Part shown: piece after piece, positions 32,700 to 44,500 of the stretch
Layout: each line of letters begins with the position of its first letter
How positions within the stretch are numbered: position 1 is the stretch's first letter
Assembly (NCBI GenBank): GCA_022321325.1
Contig: JAKOEO010000012.1
Coordinates: forward strand, 1-61,654
Direction: 5' to 3'
DNA length: 61,654 bases
Source: Candidatus Magnetominusculus sp. LBB02
GTDB lineage: Bacteria > Nitrospirota > Thermodesulfovibrionia > Thermodesulfovibrionales > Magnetobacteriaceae
Translations under genes and position numbers: made by a program
The notes under the pieces: generated by a model
The model's database searches: none
Told to the model about the DNA's origin: nothing
The model's input: the letters and a program-made list of their open reading frames with translations, nothing else

Positions 32700-32804
32700 C
32701 CTGCCTATTTTATCATATTGGCGGTACGCTTAACATCGTATTTTAATTATGATACCTTTGTGACAAATATTTCTTGTATCTGCTATAATCGTAGCATAAG
32801 GACC

Positions 32805-33713
32805 ATGGATGTGAAAGAAGATATAATGACTGCAAAAATAGTCTCTTACAAGGAAATAGTAAGAGACCATGTGGTGCTGACTAAGCCGGGGATTGTGCTC
32901 CTTGTGTTGATTACCACGCTGGGCGGGATGTACATGGGGCAAAGGGAGCTGCCCGGGCAGATGCTCATCTTGCTTACGCTGCTGCCTGTGGGCCTTGCTA
33001 CGGCAGGGTCTGCCGTGCTTAATAATTTCTTTGACAGAGACATAGACGTTCTCATGGGCCGGACGCTGAGAAGGCCGCTCCCACAGGGGCGTATCTACCC
33101 TATGAACGCGCTTATATTTGGAGTTTCCCTTATATTAGTTTCATTATTCGTCCTTTTGTTTGTCAATGCAATTACGGCTTTCCTTACAGCCGTAAGCGCG
33201 TTTGTCTACATTGTTCCATATACGCTTTTGATGAAGAGGAGGACTCATCTTGTTACCCATGTGGGAAGCATTACAGGGGCGTTGCCTCCTGTAATCGGCT
33301 ACGCCGCAGTCAGAGGGACAGTGGGGCTAGAGGCGATGGTGTTATTTGCGATAATGTTTATCTGGCAGCACCCGCACTTCTGGGCATACTCTCTAAAGTA
33401 TAAGGACGATTATTCTCGGGCCGGCATTCCCGTACTGCCGCTGTCAAAGGGTATAAAGGGGACGAAGTTGAGGACGCTGATTTACACGGCGGCGCTTTTT
33501 CCTGTCAGCATTATGCCGTATTTTTTAAAGATGTCCGGCGTGTACTATCTCGCCCTTGCCACAGTGCTTGGTCTAATCTATCTTGTCCTTGCGCTGAAGG
33601 CGTATCTGTCTGAAAAAGGGACAGGCCGAATGCTGTTTGTCTATTCCCTCGTGTATATCTCGCTTCTTTTCACCGGATTGGTGGCGGATATGGTAAGAAA
33701 CGCCGGAGGTTAA
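32805..33713 (+). CDS. ctaB: Protoheme IX farnesyltransferase (heme O synthase)
   Basis: LTKPGI, NNFFDRDID..M.RT..RPLP, WQHPHFW, DDYSRAGIPVLP. Confidence 0.95.
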   Translation: MDVKEDIMTAKIVSYKEIVRDHVVLTKPGIVLLVLITTLGGMYMGQRELPGQMLILLTLLPVGLATAGSAVLNNFFDRDIDVLMGRTLRRPLPQGRIYPMNALIFGVSLILVSLFVLLFVNAITAFLTAVSAFVYIVPYTLLMKRRTHLVTHVGSITGALPPVIGYAAVRGTVGLEAMVLFAIMFIWQHPHFWAYSLKYKDDYSRAGIPVLPLSKGIKGTKLRTLIYTAALFPVSIMPYFLKMSGVYYLALATVLGLIYLVLALKAYLSEKGTGRMLFVYSLVYISLLFTGLVADMVRNAGG

Positions 33714-33726
33714 CGGCCTCTGGCGG

Positions 33727-35640
33727 CTATTTCAGATATAGGAAGTTCTTAGCGCTCTCGTCATATGTGATGACAATACTGTCTTTTGCATTGAGCTGCT
33801 TTTTCACCTCTATCTCGCTTCGTTTTTCCGGAAACAGGGTCTCTTCTATCTTAAATTTTATGTCGGACTCTTCAGGGTTAATCATCACCTCGTCATATAC
33901 GAAAATGGCCGAGTCCCTTCTGATGCCGCGTGGATTGAACACCTTTGAGTACACCTGTTTCTGGTTGACGGTTATGTCTACCTTTATTGGCGAACGCGCA
34001 CTGGCCACCGATGGGGTTGACCTGTACTTGAATGACAGGACGATGGCGCTTTTGTCTGTCGGGTAAAATGCCATCTTAAAGTCAGTCAGAGGAAAAAGCA
34101 GGACAACCGGTATAAGAAGCACAATTGCAGAGACGGCATAGTTGAGTTTTTTAAGCCCTCTTACTGCGACAGTTTCCGACTTGCCGCCGCCTGTTACGTC
34201 TTTTATAAATGCGTTGAGCTGCTGGGTTATGTCTGTATTGGATGTTACCATCAATATCCTGATCTTCGATGGGTCAACGTTTTGGTTAAGATAGGGCTTT
34301 CTCTGCCTATTATATCTGGCGACAGCCCACTTGCCGCCTTCTCTGTAATGACAGTCATCCTGTTCACAACCAACAAGCATGACGCCCTTTACCCCTGTGG
34401 CAAGTATGTCTCTGGGGAAATTTGGATGAACTGAGCCAATGCACGGGACGGTGTATGTAAAAACATCGTTTCTTTCTGGCGGCGTGGCCGTGCTCGTGCA
34501 CCTTAACAGCACAAATTCCGGAGACCTCTCCTTTATCTCATCTAACATCGCCTGCCACTGAAAACCCGGCATAGTAATCGCTTTAAAGCTGCATGACCCT
34601 ATACATATGGCGCAGCTTGCGCATTTGTTTTCATTAAGCACGGCCTTCTTCTTTCCCTCAAACGTCCTTTGCATGATTACCGCCTCATATGGGCAGTCCA
34701 TGTAGCAGCGTTCGCAGCCGACGCACTTGTCCTTGTCTATTGTCACCACAGCCGCCCTCAATCCCCTGATTATCCACGGGAAAAGACATATTACAAGCGT
34801 ACCGACGCTTACCAGAAGCCACATCGTTGATAGCGGCATGAGCTTCATAAGCGGATAGACAAAGAAATACGCCCAGTCTAAAGAGATATTAAACGGCAGC
34901 TTAGAAAGGCTTGCCTCAGGGTTGCTTTTTGCAGAGAGAAATATGCTTAAAAGCACAAAATACACTGTAAGGCTTGCCCACAGATACTTAGGCGGTATAA
35001 TCCGCGGCCTTGCGTTTCTCAGGACATGTATCCACAATACAAATACGATAGCAAGGGTAATTGCAACATGAAAATAGAGAATCATTCTGAACATCCCGCC
35101 AAGCAGCTTAATGTCGGCGCCAAAAAATGTGCTCATTATAGAATGTCCAAACACGGGCAGGTACGAAAGAAACTTGCCCGAAAGTATCCCTATAAGCTGC
35201 GCCTTAGCGTCCCAGACAAGTATATAGCCCGATATCCCTATGGCAAGAAACATGCCAAGCCCTAACAGCCCGGTAATCCATGCCACCCACCTGTAGCTGC
35301 GAAACCTGTCGGTAACAAGCACATGGACCATGTGGGCAATGGCTATAAAAATGATGCCGGCAGAGGTATATCTGTGCAGCCCGCGCATGAGGTTTCCTAA
35401 GAAAGACGAGGAAATCGCCGCTACAGAGGAGTAGCAATAACGCGGGTCTATCTTGTAAAATATATAGAGATAAATCCCTGAGATTACATCGAGGACAAGC
35501 AGAAATATTGCAATAGCGCCAAGCCAGTAAAGCGGATTAAGCTCATACGAAAACGCCCTGCTGAAGGTGGAGGAAAGTCTGTGGAATAGTCCCTGAAGCA
35601 TTGCCGGCTGCTGATGAGGTTGTTTATTTAATTTATCCAT
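33727..35640 (-). CDS. Cytochrome b + 2x[4Fe-4S] ferredoxin + MvhD/FlpD-like [2Fe-2S] fusion membrane protein
   Basis: RGLHRY, AHMVHV, YFHV, WIHV heme His; CVGCERCYMDCP and CASCAICIGSC; VPCIG..GCEQDDCHYREG; start uncertain. Confidence 0.88.
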   Translation of the reverse strand: MDKLNKQPHQQPAMLQGLFHRLSSTFSRAFSYELNPLYWLGAIAIFLLVLDVISGIYLYIFYKIDPRYCYSSVAAISSSFLGNLMRGLHRYTSAGIIFIAIAHMVHVLVTDRFRSYRWVAWITGLLGLGMFLAIGISGYILVWDAKAQLIGILSGKFLSYLPVFGHSIMSTFFGADIKLLGGMFRMILYFHVAITLAIVFVLWIHVLRNARPRIIPPKYLWASLTVYFVLLSIFLSAKSNPEASLSKLPFNISLDWAYFFVYPLMKLMPLSTMWLLVSVGTLVICLFPWIIRGLRAAVVTIDKDKCVGCERCYMDCPYEAVIMQRTFEGKKKAVLNENKCASCAICIGSCSFKAITMPGFQWQAMLDEIKERSPEFVLLRCTSTATPPERNDVFTYTVPCIGSVHPNFPRDILATGVKGVMLVGCEQDDCHYREGGKWAVARYNRQRKPYLNQNVDPSKIRILMVTSNTDITQQLNAFIKDVTGGGKSETVAVRGLKKLNYAVSAIVLLIPVVLLFPLTDFKMAFYPTDKSAIVLSFKYRSTPSVASARSPIKVDITVNQKQVYSKVFNPRGIRRDSAIFVYDEVMINPEESDIKFKIEETLFPEKRSEIEVKKQLNAKDSIVITYDESAKNFLYLK

Positions 35641-35675
35641 GCCTTTATAATACGTATGATATATGCCATAATGCA

Positions 35676-35689
35676 ATGATATAAATCAT
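35676..35689. promoter_or_regulatory. CRP/FNR-family palindromic site
   Basis: ATGAT-ATAA-ATCAT centred at about -41.5 from minus-strand TATTAT (35653-35648). Confidence 0.6.
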
Positions 35690-37795: not shown

Positions 37796-38557
37796 ATGAA
37801 AGGGAAAGTCGTAGCGTTTGTAGCAGTATTCATTGTGTTAGCGGTCTTTGCAATGGGCGAGAGTTTTGCCGCATCCGAGGCCGACGTAGGGCAAAAGGTA
37901 TTTGAGAGGAGATGCGCATTTTGCCATGGGCTTAACGGCGACGGCAATGGGATGGCGGAGTTTGTCTATAAGAAAGACAAGGGCAAGATCTGGAAGCTGT
38001 ATCCGCGTGATTTTACACAGGGCGTTTTCAGGTTCAGGTCAACTCCTACCGGAAGCCTTCCTACTGACGAAGACCTGACGCGCATATTGGTCAGAGGTAT
38101 TCCACGCTCAAGCATGCCGACTACGAAAGACCTGTCGGACGAGGAGAGAAGGGCGGTTATTGCGTATATCAAGACGCTCTCAAAGAGGTGGAAAGACGAA
38201 CAGCCCGGAATTGCGATTCACCCGGGGGACAAACCTGCATGGGTTGGCACTCCTGAATCGGTTGAAAAGGGCGCTCAGGTGTGGAAGGAAATGAAGTGCT
38301 GGGAATGCCACGGTGAAAAGGGAAGGGGCGACGGCCCTAAGTCCAACGATATTAAAGACGACCAGAAAAGGCCAATTCTGCCGTTTGACTTCACAATTGG
38401 CGCTCTGAAAAGAGGCACGGAAGACGAAGATATCTATATGACGTACACGACCGGCCTTGATGGCACGGGAATGCCTTCGTATGAGGATTCGCTTAACGAG
38501 GAGCAGCGCTGGCATCTGGTATCGTTCACGAAAAAACTGATGGGAAAGATAAAATAA
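37796..38557 (+). CDS. Diheme cytochrome c
   Basis: Signal peptide, CAFCH and CWECH, PRDFT..FRSTPTGSLPTDEDL, two MP distal Met motifs. Confidence 0.92.
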   Translation: MKGKVVAFVAVFIVLAVFAMGESFAASEADVGQKVFERRCAFCHGLNGDGNGMAEFVYKKDKGKIWKLYPRDFTQGVFRFRSTPTGSLPTDEDLTRILVRGIPRSSMPTTKDLSDEERRAVIAYIKTLSKRWKDEQPGIAIHPGDKPAWVGTPESVEKGAQVWKEMKCWECHGEKGRGDGPKSNDIKDDQKRPILPFDFTIGALKRGTEDEDIYMTYTTGLDGTGMPSYEDSLNEEQRWHLVSFTKKLMGKIK

Positions 38558-38566
38558 GGACGGGAG

Positions 38567-38749
38567 GTGAAACTTATGTCGGAAGAACAGGCAGGATTTA
38601 TAGAGAAATTAATGGATAATCCCATAGGGCTGTTGGTGCTTTCAAATGGGGTGTTGCTGGTGGTTTATTTTCTGTGGGGATTATTTGAGATAGAAACTAT
38701 AGCCCCAATCCCTGATGCGCTTAAAGCAATTATCTTAGGAGGTAAATAA
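38567..38749 (+). CDS. Small single-TM subunit of the heme-copper enzyme
   Basis: One TM (LMDNPIGLL..YFLWGL); directly before subunit II. Confidence 0.75.
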   Translation: MKLMSEEQAGFIEKLMDNPIGLLVLSNGVLLVVYFLWGLFEIETIAPIPDALKAIILGGK

Positions 38750-38750
38750 A

Positions 38751-39281
38751 ATGGCGATTCTTGCACCAGAAAAAGGATGGTGGCAAAAGAAGGTAGCCAG
38801 CGACGAAAAGACGTGGATTATGTTTGCGGCAGTCGTCGCTCTGGCCCTCTTTGTGCTAATGGTTGGGTGGCATTTGCTGGGAAAACAAAACCCATCATAT
38901 ATCGTCTATTCAACGTCACCCGACGAGTTTTATAAACTTGCCCAGGCAAATTGGGCGAAATACAAGGTTGGCGAAGAGGCCGGCATCCCTGTTGTACAGC
39001 CGCCCCCGGACGCCGATGTGTTTGTTCTTGCCTCTACGTGGAAATGGGAACCTGTCTTAGTTCTCAAAAAGGGTGCGAATTACAAATTTCATGTATCGTC
39101 TATGGACCTGCTTCATGGCTTTTCCATACAGCCTGTGAACATGAACTTCGCAATCCATCCGGGGTATGACTATGTTCTAACATTTAAACCGACATCCGCC
39201 GGTGATTTCAGGCTTATGTGCAACGAGTACTGCGGCCCTGGGCATCATACGATGATTGGAAAAATAAAAGTTGAAGACTAA
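38751..39281 (+). CDS. Heme-copper oxidoreductase subunit II (CuA, B-family-like)
   Basis: One TM; DLLHGF and CNEYCGPGHHTM. Confidence 0.93.
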   Translation: MAILAPEKGWWQKKVASDEKTWIMFAAVVALALFVLMVGWHLLGKQNPSYIVYSTSPDEFYKLAQANWAKYKVGEEAGIPVVQPPPDADVFVLASTWKWEPVLVLKKGANYKFHVSSMDLLHGFSIQPVNMNFAIHPGYDYVLTFKPTSAGDFRLMCNEYCGPGHHTMIGKIKVED

Positions 39282-39298: not shown

Positions 39299-40978
39299 AT
39301 GTCTTTTTTAAAGTGCGATATCACTGGGTTTAACGTAGATAAGCGAGTGTTGCCCTTGATAAAAGCAAACGCGGTGGTCTCTGTGGTTTCCCTTCTTTTG
39401 GCCATACTTACCGCCATACTGGTGCTTTTTACAAGGTGGCAGGTCGTCCATCTGCTCCCGGTTGACTGGTATTACAGGATACTTACGCTGCATGGGTTGG
39501 TGGCGCTTGTTGTGTGGATAGTGTTTTGGGAGATGGCCGGGCTTTATTTCGGTTCAACTGTGGTGTTAAACGCCCGACAAATTGCGCCGGGGCTTGGCTG
39601 GATTGCCTTCTTGCTCATGGTCGTGGGAACTGCGCTGGTTGCCTTTGCCGTTTTGACAGGCAGGGCGGATGTTCTTTTCACCTCTTATGTGCCGCTTAAG
39701 GCCAATCCTATACATTATCTTGGGATAATCCTCTTTGCCGTTGGCGCCCTTATCGTTTGCGGGTTGTTTTTGGCCAATATCATAGTGGCAAAGAAAGAGA
39801 AGACTTACGGCGGCGGGCCGCTTCCTCTTTTCACCTTTGGTCTGCTTACGGCGACAATATTGGCTATCGGCACCCTTCTTTCCGGCGCGGCTATTTATGT
39901 CCCTGTATTTCTGTGGTCATTGGGATTAATACAGTCTGTTGACAGCATTGTTTACAGACTGGTGTTCTGGGGTTTTGGTCATTCAGCCCAGCAGGTTAAC
40001 GTGGCCGCGATGATATCAATATGGTATCTCGGCGCGTTCTTAACTGTCGGCGGCACGTCAATAAACGAGAGAATCAGCAGAATGGCGTTTTTGTTCTACA
40101 TGATCGGCATTAACCTTGCCTCTGCCCACCATCTGCTTGTTGACCCGATTCCGTCTCCAGCGTGGAAGATAGTAAACACCAGTTATTTTATGTACCTGGC
40201 CGTGTTGGCCTCTATGATTCACGCCTTTGCCGTTCCATCGGCGATTGAGGTAGCCCAGAGAAGGCGCGGCTATACGAAGGGGCTTTTTGACTGGCTCAAG
40301 AACTGCCCGTGGGGAAATCCTGCGTTTGTCTCGGTGTTTTTGGCCGTTGTCACCTTTGGATTTATCGGCGGCATTACCGGCGTTATCAACGGCATGGAAC
40401 AGACCAATATGATCGTACACAATACGCTGGCCCTTCCCGGACACTTCAAGGGCACGGTCGTCAGTGGAACGACACTTACGTTTATGGGCGCCACGTACTA
40501 CCTGATACCGCTTATATTCAGGAAGAAGATATCCTTCTTCGGCGCGGCTAAGGCTGCCCCGTGGCTGTTTGCAATCGGCATAGTGCTGCTTTCAGCCGGT
40601 CTTTCCACGCTGGGTTATCTTGGCGTACCGAGAAGACACTGGGATATTACGTATGCCGGAGGGCCGTTTACCTACACGTATCCTCCTATTGCAGACCTTC
40701 TGTGGGTTGTTGCCGTTCTGGGTGGAACGATAGCGTTTATCGGCGCTCTTATATGGATTTTGGTCGTGGTGATCTCCGTATTCTTTGGAAAGCCTATGAC
40801 AGGGCCGGCAGATTTTCAGCTTCCTCTGGCATCGCCGCTTCCTCCGGAGAGCAAAGAGCACGATTCAAAGTTCGTCGCCCCCGGCACTTTTGCGCTTACT
40901 ATTATCTGGATGTTGGCGTTTTTGATCTTTGCAACTATAAGCTGGGGCTGGCTCAGCATGATGTGGGAGGTCAAATAG
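39299..40978 (+). CDS. Heme-copper superfamily subunit I, eNOR-type nitric oxide reductase
   Basis: LTLHG, WGFGHSAQQVN (Gln where the crosslinked Tyr normally lies), SAHHLL, PGHFKG. Confidence 0.82.
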   Translation: MSFLKCDITGFNVDKRVLPLIKANAVVSVVSLLLAILTAILVLFTRWQVVHLLPVDWYYRILTLHGLVALVVWIVFWEMAGLYFGSTVVLNARQIAPGLGWIAFLLMVVGTALVAFAVLTGRADVLFTSYVPLKANPIHYLGIILFAVGALIVCGLFLANIIVAKKEKTYGGGPLPLFTFGLLTATILAIGTLLSGAAIYVPVFLWSLGLIQSVDSIVYRLVFWGFGHSAQQVNVAAMISIWYLGAFLTVGGTSINERISRMAFLFYMIGINLASAHHLLVDPIPSPAWKIVNTSYFMYLAVLASMIHAFAVPSAIEVAQRRRGYTKGLFDWLKNCPWGNPAFVSVFLAVVTFGFIGGITGVINGMEQTNMIVHNTLALPGHFKGTVVSGTTLTFMGATYYLIPLIFRKKISFFGAAKAAPWLFAIGIVLLSAGLSTLGYLGVPRRHWDITYAGGPFTYTYPPIADLLWVVAVLGGTIAFIGALIWILVVVISVFFGKPMTGPADFQLPLASPLPPESKEHDSKFVAPGTFALTIIWMLAFLIFATISWGWLSMMWEVK

Positions 40979-40982
40979 GCCG

Positions 40983-41804
40983 TTGAAGCAATATCTGCTC
41001 TTTCTCTGTTCGGCGGCGGCGTTTGTAGTATTTGTCTGCGGCACATGCGCAGGCGATGATAAACTAACGTCGCCCAACGAGAAAGAGACCTTGGGCAAGG
41101 CCGTACCCAACGTCAAACTGTTTGATTCATACGGCAAGGACCGCACCATGTCTGACATAATAGGGGGTAAACCCCTCATTATGAGTATCATCTACACAAG
41201 GTGCGAAACGGCCTGTATCATTATCACAGACGGCCTGACGGAGGTTGTCAAAAAGATGGGGGATGCGGGGAAAGACTATAATGTCCTCACGCTGTCGTTT
41301 GACCCTTCGGACACGCCAGAGAGGCTTGCAAAGTTCAGGACGCAGTGGGGGCTTGACGGCCCCGGCTGGGTGGTGGCCTCAGGCGAGGACGCCGACCTTA
41401 AAAAGTTGCTTAGTGCGATAGGATTTTCGTATAAACTTGACAAGGAGACAGGTGAGTTCATTCATCCCAATCTCCTTGTCATTCTTACCCCTGACGGCAG
41501 GATTTCAAGATATGTCTACGGCGTTAATTACGACGACAATAATCTGAAATTGAGTCTGCTTGACGCAAAAAGGGGCACTTCCACGTTGAGCGTTATGGAG
41601 GGGGTGCTGCTGTGGTGTTATCAATATGACCCTGTTACAGGTTCGTACAGGTTTGACTATGCGTTCCTGCTTGAGGTCATAAGCGGGCTTGCCTTTTTTA
41701 TTTCCCTGTTGTTCTTTTTCTTTGCGAAGAAAGTAATCGCCTGTCTGCGCACGTTTGCCGGTTCAGTCAATGTAGGACAGACCTTGCCGGCAGATAAGAA
41801 TTAA
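40983..41804 (+). CDS. SCO/SenC copper chaperone
   Basis: YTRCETAC (CxxxC), FIHP, C-terminal TM. Confidence 0.9.
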   Translation: MKQYLLFLCSAAAFVVFVCGTCAGDDKLTSPNEKETLGKAVPNVKLFDSYGKDRTMSDIIGGKPLIMSIIYTRCETACIIITDGLTEVVKKMGDAGKDYNVLTLSFDPSDTPERLAKFRTQWGLDGPGWVVASGEDADLKKLLSAIGFSYKLDKETGEFIHPNLLVILTPDGRISRYVYGVNYDDNNLKLSLLDAKRGTSTLSVMEGVLLWCYQYDPVTGSYRFDYAFLLEVISGLAFFISLLFFFFAKKVIACLRTFAGSVNVGQTLPADKN

Positions 41805-41976: not shown

Positions 41977-42744
41977 ATGGGCTATAATTGGAAGACTAAA
42001 ACCTTCATTGAGGAAAGGAAGTTTGTAGTCTTATTGTTTTTAATATCCTCAATTTTGGGCCTTGCTCTGACGGGTCATGCGGAGGAAGCTGCCATGGACG
42101 GTAAGGAGACTTACAAGAAGCACTGCGCGCCATGCCACGGTTTTGAAGGCAAAGGGGACGGGCCGGTGGCAAAGGCGGTATTTCCAAAACCGAGGGATTT
42201 AACCTCTGGATCATATAAGATTCGCTCCACACCAAGCGGGTCTCTTCCTACGGACGAGGACATCCTGCACACGTTAAAAAATGGGATGCCGGGGACGAGT
42301 ATGATTCCGTGGGACATCTTAGGCGACGATGTTCTTAAGTCGCTGGTTGAGACAGTAAAGGGTTTCGCACCTTTTTTCAAGGATGAAAAGCCTGACCATC
42401 CTGTAAAGATAGCTGACAAGACATCATCATCGCCGGAGACCATAGCGCTAGGGAAGAAGGTCTATATGGATAACGGATGCTGGAAGTGCCACGGGCAAGA
42501 GGGAAGAGGCGACGGGCCAAGCTCTGACAGGTTGAAGGACGATTCAGGTAAACCGATAACGCCGTATGACTTTACAAAAGGCGATAACCTCAAGGGCGGC
42601 AATACGGATGTGGATATATTTCTTAGGTTTACCACCGGTATGACCGGCACCCCTATGCCGTCGTATGAGGATACGATAGATGCGGCTAAGAGATGGGCGC
42701 TTGTCCACTACGTCAGAACGCTGATGAGACCAGCACAAAAGTAG
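41977..42744 (+). CDS. Diheme cytochrome c (paralogue of 37796-38557)
   Basis: CAPCH and CWKCH, PRDLT..RSTPSGSLPTDED. Confidence 0.92.
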   Translation: MGYNWKTKTFIEERKFVVLLFLISSILGLALTGHAEEAAMDGKETYKKHCAPCHGFEGKGDGPVAKAVFPKPRDLTSGSYKIRSTPSGSLPTDEDILHTLKNGMPGTSMIPWDILGDDVLKSLVETVKGFAPFFKDEKPDHPVKIADKTSSSPETIALGKKVYMDNGCWKCHGQEGRGDGPSSDRLKDDSGKPITPYDFTKGDNLKGGNTDVDIFLRFTTGMTGTPMPSYEDTIDAAKRWALVHYVRTLMRPAQK

Positions 42745-42787: not shown

Positions 42788-44500
42788 ATGAGAAATCTTG
42801 GATGTAAAAAAGTGGCGGCATGCTTAATCGTTCTGGCGATTACGATGTGCCTTGCGTTGCCTGTCTTTGCAAAGGACTCCGGCAATATTGAAGATACGCC
42901 CAAATTCACGAACATCTACGAGGGGCTGCCGGATAAATACAGGGATATGTATGAAAAACACACAGGATTAAGCGTCGGCGCCGGCCCGTGGGGCACTTAT
43001 TTTCCAGTGCCGAAGCTCCACATGTACTGGTCGCCTGAGAAGCACTACGAGCCTTCTAATAAGATAGACCATACGATCTTTATCGAGAAGAACAGGACTG
43101 AGTTGTGCGTAAAGTGCCACGAGGGGATAAATGTCGGGACGGTGCGCGACTGGCAGAACTCCGCCCACTTCAATCCTAACAAGACACAATTTACCGCGAT
43201 GAGGACCAAGCAGATTGAGGCAGACCTCGGCAGGAAGATTGAACAGGTAACCTGCTTCGACTGCCACGTCAATGCGGAGAAAAAGATCATCAGGATGCCG
43301 TCGGCCAATGTTTGCGGGCAGTGCCACGGGCAGCAAGTGCAAGAACTTATGCAGGAAAGAGACCATGGTCGTCCCAATCATATTCAAGGCTGGGAGTCAA
43401 ACGTTGTGCCGCCGTGGTACGGCGAGGCCGGAAGGAGAGGGCAGATAATCGGCATGGTCGGCTGCGATATGTGCCACGCCGCTACAGAAAAATGCGACGG
43501 CTGCCACACGCGCCACACATTCAGCGCCACAGAGGCAAGAAAGCCAGAGGCTTGTATGTCCTGCCACATGGGGCCTGATCATCCCGATGCAGAGACTTAC
43601 AGAGAATCGAAACACGGCATGATCTATGAGATGGAAAAAGAGCATTTCGATTTCACCAAACCGCTTAGCCAGGTACAAATCGGCAAGGACTACCGCACCC
43701 CGACGTGCCAGCTATGCCACATGTATCAGGGAAGCGGCAGGTTTTCGCATAACTTTGTCGCAAAGGGCATATGGCGTATGGGAACCGTCCCGCCGAAACA
43801 GATAGACTTTCAATCCTCGCTGAAGGACTATCCTTACGGGATTAAGATAATACCGCCAAAGATAGACCTGAAATCGCCCGATAATATCGAAAAGAGAGCG
43901 AAGTGGATAGAGTTGTGCTCGAAATGCCACGGCCCCCGATTTGCCGAAATCTATCTTGAGACCCTGGATGACTATATGATTCAGGCATTTAAGATGACAG
44001 ACGAGGCGCAGTTAATAATTGACAACCTGTTCAGGGACAATATGATATATCCCTCTGTGCCCGACAGAGATATCTATCCAATGGGTGACCATGCGGCGGA
44101 CGTGTTCGGGAAGGAACTTCTTGGCGAAGGAGTCTATAATGCATTCAAACTAACCGGCGGCAAGATACCTGTAGTCGGGCCTATACTAGGCGTCTATGGG
44201 TTATTTTATCAGGGTATAAATAACCCGTCAGAGATAGAAAACACATACGCAAAGATGTGGTTCTTCTACAAGAATCAGGGATATAAGGGCACTGCCCATG
44301 CCCAGCAGGACTACTCGTGGTGGTGGGGCCAGGCTCCGATGCTTCATTCGCTTGGGTCAATCAGGTCTGAAGACCAAAGGCTTCGCAGAATAGCAGCCGA
44401 TGAGGCGAAGTACAAGCTAAGATCAGTCATAGTCCTGTCCACATTAGCTATTTTAATCATAGCGGTTGTGATACTGTGGATAAGGAGACGGAAGGACTAA
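42788..44500 (+). CDS. Octaheme hydroxylamine oxidoreductase-family protein, membrane-anchored, reductive type
   Basis: Eight CxxCH; CHTRHTFS..EARKPEAC..CHMGPDHP..ESKHG; AHAQQDYSWWWG; C-terminal TM. Confidence 0.9.
   Translation: MRNLGCKKVAACLIVLAITMCLALPVFAKDSGNIEDTPKFTNIYEGLPDKYRDMYEKHTGLSVGAGPWGTYFPVPKLHMYWSPEKHYEPSNKIDHTIFIEKNRTELCVKCHEGINVGTVRDWQNSAHFNPNKTQFTAMRTKQIEADLGRKIEQVTCFDCHVNAEKKIIRMPSANVCGQCHGQQVQELMQERDHGRPNHIQGWESNVVPPWYGEAGRRGQIIGMVGCDMCHAATEKCDGCHTRHTFSATEARKPEACMSCHMGPDHPDAETYRESKHGMIYEMEKEHFDFTKPLSQVQIGKDYRTPTCQLCHMYQGSGRFSHNFVAKGIWRMGTVPPKQIDFQSSLKDYPYGIKIIPPKIDLKSPDNIEKRAKWIELCSKCHGPRFAEIYLETLDDYMIQAFKMTDEAQLIIDNLFRDNMIYPSVPDRDIYPMGDHAADVFGKELLGEGVYNAFKLTGGKIPVVGPILGVYGLFYQGINNPSEIENTYAKMWFFYKNQGYKGTAHAQQDYSWWWGQAPMLHSLGSIRSEDQRLRRIAADEAKYKLRSVIVLSTLAILIIAVVILWIRRRKD

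Follow-up and report, generated by a model that had tools for sequence, protein, structure and literature searches.

The locus considered here raises the question of which enzyme carries a lysine where the second histidine ligand of a low-spin heme would be expected, and what role this lysine has. It is found in a 61,654 nt stretch of DNA (the window) from Candidatus Magnetominusculus sp. LBB02. The original prediction interpreted the change from HFH to HFK as His/Lys ligation of the heme in a subunit I and as a possible new subfamily. The reading that we hold with considerable confidence is that of an eNOR-family enzyme, a likely NO-to-N2O reductase, in which Lys384 is the predicted low-spin axial ligand. 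Ligation and activity are judged here from residue positions and by homology with the R. marinus enzyme, which has been assayed. The relevant positions in the subunit I gene are listed below.

39299..40978, plus strand: putative eNOR subunit I, 559 aa, PF00115 COX1, with a ba3-like fold
39491..39493, plus strand: His65, position of the other low-spin heme ligand (ba3 H72), intact
39503..39505, plus strand: Ala69, one helical turn after His65
39980..39994, plus strand: His228 to Gln232, a non-heme metal ligand position and the eNOR signature Gln that replaces the cross-linked Tyr
40025..40027, plus strand: Tyr243 of the K-channel, corresponding by spacing to R. marinus Y256
40127..40132, plus strand: His277-His278, non-heme metal ligand positions
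40211..40222, plus strand: Ser305 and His308 of the K-channel, corresponding by spacing to R. marinus S318 and H321
40430..40432, plus strand: Ala378, a small residue in Lys-type rows and Arg in His-type rows
40439..40453, plus strand: G-H-F-K-G motif where predicted helix X begins, with H382 at the high-spin heme ligand position
40448..40450, plus strand: codon AAG of Lys384, which aligns with the second ligand of the low-spin heme (ba3 H386)

The 559 aa open reading frame matches PF00115 COX1 with 198.8 bits. The best solved relatives by sequence, as determined by phmmer, are T. thermophilus ba3 (E 2e-49) and then 7deg (E 2e-40). Positions 40439..40453 on the plus strand read GGA CAC TTC AAG GGC, i.e., G381, H382, F383, K384 and G385. 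The segment PGHFK aligns with PGHFH of ba3 in a gapless block, which places H382 on H384 and K384 on H386; the ba3 residue numbers were counted along the printed alignment with a 6-residue tag allowed for. We take ba3 H384 to be the high-spin heme ligand and ba3 H386 to be the low-spin heme ligand. The His ligand positions 65, 228, 277, 278 and 382 are all occupied by His, in agreement with the original prediction that the other metal ligands are intact. The position of the cross-linked Tyr is occupied by Gln232, a point that was not spelled out there. An AlphaFold model of subunit I, made from a 53-row alignment and containing no heme, has a pLDDT of 88.5 and a pTM of 0.90. Residues 378–407 form a single helix in this model, and comparison with ba3 gives a TM score of 0.76–0.80 at approximately 27% identity.

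The gene at 39299..40978 likely encodes subunit I of an eNOR-family nitric oxide reductase, as judged from its sequence. The segment H228-x3-Q232 aligns on H233-x3-Y237 of ba3, with Gln four residues after the first non-heme-metal His, and the three non-heme-metal His residues (H228, H277 and H278) and the high-spin heme His (H382) are present. Gln is used as a diagnostic site for eNOR (PMC8756737, accessible text). The eNOR residues that match the ba3 K-channel are given for R. marinus as Q245, Y256, S318, H321 and E(II)21 (PMC11214002, Dataset S1, accessible part). The spacing of Q232, Y243, S305 and H308 (11, 73 and 3) is the R. marinus spacing calculated from these published numbers; Y243, S305 and H308 lie 11, 73 and 76 residues past the Gln. 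Subunit II, with a complete CuA motif, adjoins subunit I; its Glu19 precedes the membrane helix and may correspond to R. marinus E(II)21.

The sequence of the R. marinus eNOR, WP_012842681.1, is absent among the named homologues listed. The 11 reference eNORs in Dataset S4 of PMC11214002 (accessible part) include KJU81997.1 from Ca. Magnetobacterium bavaricum. The window protein is 85% identical to KJU81997.1 (474/559; P0246 in our set), which reads PGHFKGT, and an IQ-TREE phylogeny places the two as sisters with support of 100/97. The same tree separates the Tyr-type outgroup from the full set of 36 eNOR-side rows, His- and Lys-type together, at 99/99. HFK is also the reading of a Hydrogenobacter thermophilus protein (P0017); this protein is from the same species as another reference eNOR but has a different accession. 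The assignment to eNOR in the original prediction is thus upheld by Gln232, by the K-channel spacing and by the 85% identity to a reference member.

Comparison with known enzymes places the window protein further. KJU81997.1, a His/Lys eNOR, has the same HFK, Gln, channel residues and length, and the differences represent ordinary between-genus divergence. The R. marinus eNOR, the assayed NO reductase of the family, has Q, Y, S and H at the same spacing and a CuA-type subunit II as here, but it has heme As at both sites, which is unlikely for the window genome in view of its heme synthesis genes (see below). The ba3 oxidase of T. thermophilus is the best solved-structure match by sequence and by fold and has a common K-channel layout; however, it has the cross-linked Tyr237 and a bis-His low-spin heme in place of Gln232 and Lys384. 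A B-family O2 reductase is rejected on the same basis, as the cross-linked helix VI Tyr is absent and Gln232 is present instead. The nNOR enzymes resemble the window protein in being B-family-derived NO reductases with a non-His second low-spin ligand. They have Glu at the Tyr position (E242) and a Met low-spin ligand, whereas Gln232 and Lys384 are found here, and nNOR is rejected as well.

Two other variants of the heme motif were observed. In five distant Tyr-type representatives (P0304, P0331, P0362, P0377 and P0409), the place of the high-spin heme His is taken by Tyr (YxH). A divergent COX1-like protein encoded in the window genome (L003:1259-2656, minus strand; G000:C65) has HYH at the heme motif and a weak PF00115 match of 49 bits; Met or Phe is found in the Tyr/Gln column, and there is no NCBIfam oxidase match to this protein. 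Similar proteins are present in several relatives (L013-L016, L018 and L020-L022).

The Lys form is not limited to the window family. Among 80 named genome loci, 23 have HFK (Aquificota, Nitrospirota, Bacteroidota and HR21) and 57 have HFH. A pooled alignment of 364 rows has 350 rows with Gln, consisting of 171 Lys-type and 179 His-type rows; the 14 non-eNOR rows were left out, and because the alignment is redundant and shaped by two seed searches, these counts are no estimate of frequency. In a set of 150 representatives at 50% identity, the site is covered by 105, with 88 His, 2 Lys and 15 other letters or gaps. One of the two Lys representatives is a doubtful fragment, and the 15 others are mostly fragments that appear frameshifted or cut. 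This set likely undercounts the Lys forms, which can join His-led clusters.

Phylogenetic analysis with the Lys column removed shows that the Lys rows form one clade. The support is 100 with FastTree (23 Lys rows of 50) and 100/99 with IQ-TREE under LG+G4 (23 Lys rows of 44). The Lys rows were thinned for both trees; for the IQ-TREE set six long outgroup branches were also dropped, and a long-branch warning in the outgroup remained. The position of the Lys clade inside the eNOR side, with the Tyr-type sequences as outgroup, implies one change from His to Lys. HFK therefore defines a clade, a point that the original prediction had proposed to settle by alignment.

Forty-nine positions, Lys384 included, separate Lys-type from His-type rows. 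Three of these lie near the low-spin ligands in the primary sequence. Position 69 is Ala in 161/171 Lys-type rows and Met in 178/179 His-type rows; position 378 is Ala, Ser or Gly in 169/171 Lys-type rows and Arg in 176/179 His-type rows; and position 385 is Gly in 170/171 Lys-type rows and mostly Ala, Val or Thr in His-type rows. The smaller residues may accommodate the greater length of the Lys side chain, with the caveat that differences found clade-wide also co-vary by descent and that Ala69 or Gly385 is present in some divergent His-type and Tyr-type rows. A search for His, Met, Cys and Lys residues kept in more than 90% of the Lys-type rows gives K384 and M366 as the clear new ones relative to the His-type rows; K410 merely replaces Arg or Lys. 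M366 aligns beside the high-spin/catalytic loop of ba3, and for this reason it is unlikely to be a substitute ligand.

The Lys-type carriers differ in their heme synthesis genes. A match to heme a synthase CtaA (PF02628) was not found in any of the nine Nitrospirota carriers that were searched (G000, which is the window genome, G001, G005, G009, G015-G018 and G043), one of which is a single-contig genome. These are eight genomes of the window family (the window genome and seven relatives) and one other Nitrospirota; they represent kin and not independent cases. A CtaA match is present in 22/22 of the other, non-Nitrospirota Lys-type genomes and in 46/50 His-type genomes (these 50 covering 50 of the 57 His-type loci). 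The 22/22 result rules out Lys as a general stand-in for the loss of heme a. Heme As is described as the eNOR cofactor, and "many", not all, eNOR operons are said to have CtaA (PMC11214002, accessible text). The window genome has a heme o synthase, CtaB, and no detectable CtaA, which makes heme As unlikely there. The Nitrospirota Lys-type lineage probably cannot make the heme As of the R. marinus eNOR, and the heme-copper enzymes of the nine carriers likely use heme b/o.

The position of Lys384 predicts that it is the second axial ligand of the low-spin heme, on the opposite side from His65. The published statement that some eNORs ligate this heme by His and Lys (PMC11214002, accessible text) agrees with the predicted His/Lys ligation of the original note. 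Alternatively, Lys384 may be conserved but off the iron, with a heme that is five-coordinate or water-ligated, or with the Lys bonded to a heme side group, e.g., the formyl of heme a. Our literature search found no measurement of the ligation, and variants of cytochrome c swap Lys for water near pH 6.5 and for Met on reduction (PMC12188557, accessible text), both of which leave room for such an arrangement. However, the Lys takes precisely the place of an axial ligand, and it is fixed throughout a single clade. The formyl partner is likely missing in the Nitrospirota carriers, as heme a synthase is undetected in the eight family genomes and in the one other. Ligation of the iron by Lys384 is preferred, and a Lys that is off the iron appears unlikely.

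If the heme is ligated by His and Lys, an altered redox potential is plausible, as was originally proposed, and the change may be in either direction. The His/Lys pair has been likened to His/Met, where the Met reportedly shifts the potential upwards by approximately 150 mV (PMC11214002, accessible text), but Lys-ligated conformers of cytochrome c were measured at about -137 to -145 mV (PMC12188557, accessible text). These values, i.e., an increase of about 150 mV with Met and potentials near -140 mV with Lys, imply that the two effects need not match. For a heme buried in the membrane, the behaviour may differ from both.

The genes that surround subunit I suggest the context in which such a heme would function.

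32718..33713, plus strand: heme o synthase CtaB/CyoE, which scores above the cut-off of TIGR01473 and lies some 5.6 kb upstream of the subunit I gene
33727-35676, minus strand: 649-aa fusion of cytochrome b, 4Fe-4S dicluster and MvhD/FlpD-like domain, located between the heme o synthase gene and the eNOR genes
37796..38557, plus strand: di-heme cytochrome c (two CxxCH), upstream of subunit II
38567..38749, plus strand: 60-aa single-helix membrane ORF, which has a strong ribosome-binding site and immediately precedes subunit II
38751..39281, plus strand: subunit II, 176 aa, a cupredoxin with the full CuA motif (H...CxExCxxxHxxM) and Glu19; PF00116 is weak, just under the cut-off
40983..41804, plus strand: SCO1/SenC copper chaperone, downstream of subunit I with a gap of 4 bases
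41977-42744: second di-heme cytochrome c, upstream of the octaheme protein
42788-44500, plus strand: 570-aa octaheme (eight CxxCH) HAO-family protein, PF13447, with a weak hydrazine dehydrogenase match far under the cut-off

The 60-aa ORF has no Pfam match and is possibly a small subunit such as IIa of ba3. The octaheme HAO-family protein is a possible NO- or nitrite-handling partner in a genome where neither nirS nor nirK was found. In Ferrigenium, a similar set of genes has been described that comprises eNOR II, eNOR I, heme o synthase, sco1 and cytochrome b/Fe-S proteins (10.64898/2026.01.22.701106, accessible part).

In the proposed mechanism, electrons would pass from the di-heme cytochrome c, the likely donor, to CuA of subunit II and from there to the His65/Lys384 low-spin heme. 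They would then be transferred to the high-spin heme (His382) and the non-heme metal (His228, His277 and His278), and two NO would be coupled at this site. Protons would be taken from the cytoplasm by the K-channel residues Tyr243, Ser305 and His308. Gln232 implies that the Tyr cross-link needed for O2 reduction is lacking.

The reading as an NO reductase is backed by the presence of NosZ (above cut-off) in the window genome, which is 91.6% complete and also has an A-family oxidase subunit I, and by a full-length cytochrome cd1 match in 6/9 Nitrospirota carriers. Neither nirS nor nirK was found in the 91.6% complete window genome, and full-length nirS was not found in G005 or in the single-contig G016, which leaves an in-cell source of NO without gene support in 3/9 carriers. 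This absence would fit a different role for the Lys branch, in which the eNOR scaffold serves another function (detoxification of NO alone, use of a different acceptor, or some remaining O2 reduction) and Lys tunes the heme for it. The 49 positions that separate Lys- and His-type rows include A309 and A311, which are close to H308 of the channel, and a divergent or generalized role is considered possible for eNOR homologues (PMC8756737, accessible text). However, the active-site and channel residues are identical to those of His-type eNORs, with Q232, H228, H277, H278, Y243, S305 and H308 present in 171/171 Lys-type rows. O2 reduction is not expected without the Tyr (PMC11214002, accessible text), and the NosZ gene also argues against another role. 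A different role of this kind is therefore considered improbable, more so than a Lys that does not ligate the iron, and reduction of NO to N2O is the preferred activity.

Conservation of the residue bears on the last alternative. Among the best 120 of 8000 scored homologues, Lys is found in 113 (112 HFK and 1 HIK) and His (HFH) in 7; these 7 are the lowest-scoring rows among the best 120, at 54–57% identity. The nearest named relatives of subunit I are from Ca. Magnetobacterium and Ca. Magnetomonas. An orthologue is present in 7/40 related genomes, all of the same family as the window, with identities of 81–95%. Lys is kept in all seven, with the codon AAA in six and AAG in one, and this synonymous change at a fixed Lys points to selection and not to error. 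A sequencing or assembly error, or a gene in decay, has a negligible probability given the Lys in 7/7 orthologues by two different codons, in 113 of the best 120 homologues from several phyla, and in a full-length, stop-free ORF within an intact gene cluster. The original prediction had considered a single sequencing error unlikely since two positions separate AAG from the His codons; that codon comparison is correct (the first and third positions differ in both cases), and none of the close orthologues has HFH.

The suggestion of a possible new subfamily does not hold. The Lys-for-His variant is already known, both in print and in a reference sequence. The His/Lys ligation of some eNORs is given as a one-sentence remark, with no data alongside it in the accessible text, by Murali et al. 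2024 (PMC11214002), and the same remark is in the accessible text of a 2021 preprint (10.1101/2021.10.15.464467). One of the 11 reference eNORs, KJU81997.1, has HFK. This is the case that the original prediction had named as refuting its proposal, namely HFK being already common among described eNORs, and a subfamily new to the literature is thereby ruled out. A literature search, which covered mostly papers outside subscription journals, found no Lys-type eNOR for which a structure, a spectrum or an assay is given, and there was nothing relevant among the Hydrogenobacter expression datasets listed. What is added here is that the Lys forms represent one clade, the residues that co-vary with the Lys, and the distribution of heme a synthase.

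The substitution itself adds little, since it is published, but the Lys-type eNOR is still a good biochemical target. The Lys branch is widespread in Nitrospirota, Aquificota and Bacteroidota, and includes Hydrogenobacter thermophilus and Hydrogenivirga caldilitoris (Aquificota). Most of the named Lys-type eNOR subunit I sequences (among P0002-P0121) bear the database name "cbb3-type cytochrome c oxidase subunit I" despite their lack of the catalytic Tyr. This oxidase label implies that a capacity to produce N2O is likely hidden in the databases. A further reading, which we offer tentatively and judge possible but somewhat short of an even chance, is that the Nitrospirota Lys-type eNOR is an NO reductase with heme b/o, a true His/Lys heme and a remodelled pocket (M69A, R378A and G385). 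If this is true, a heme b/o eNOR would mature without O2 and would be an exception to the view of eNOR users as obligate aerobic denitrifiers. It would also provide a natural test of the effect of an amine ligand on electron transfer in a heme-copper enzyme.
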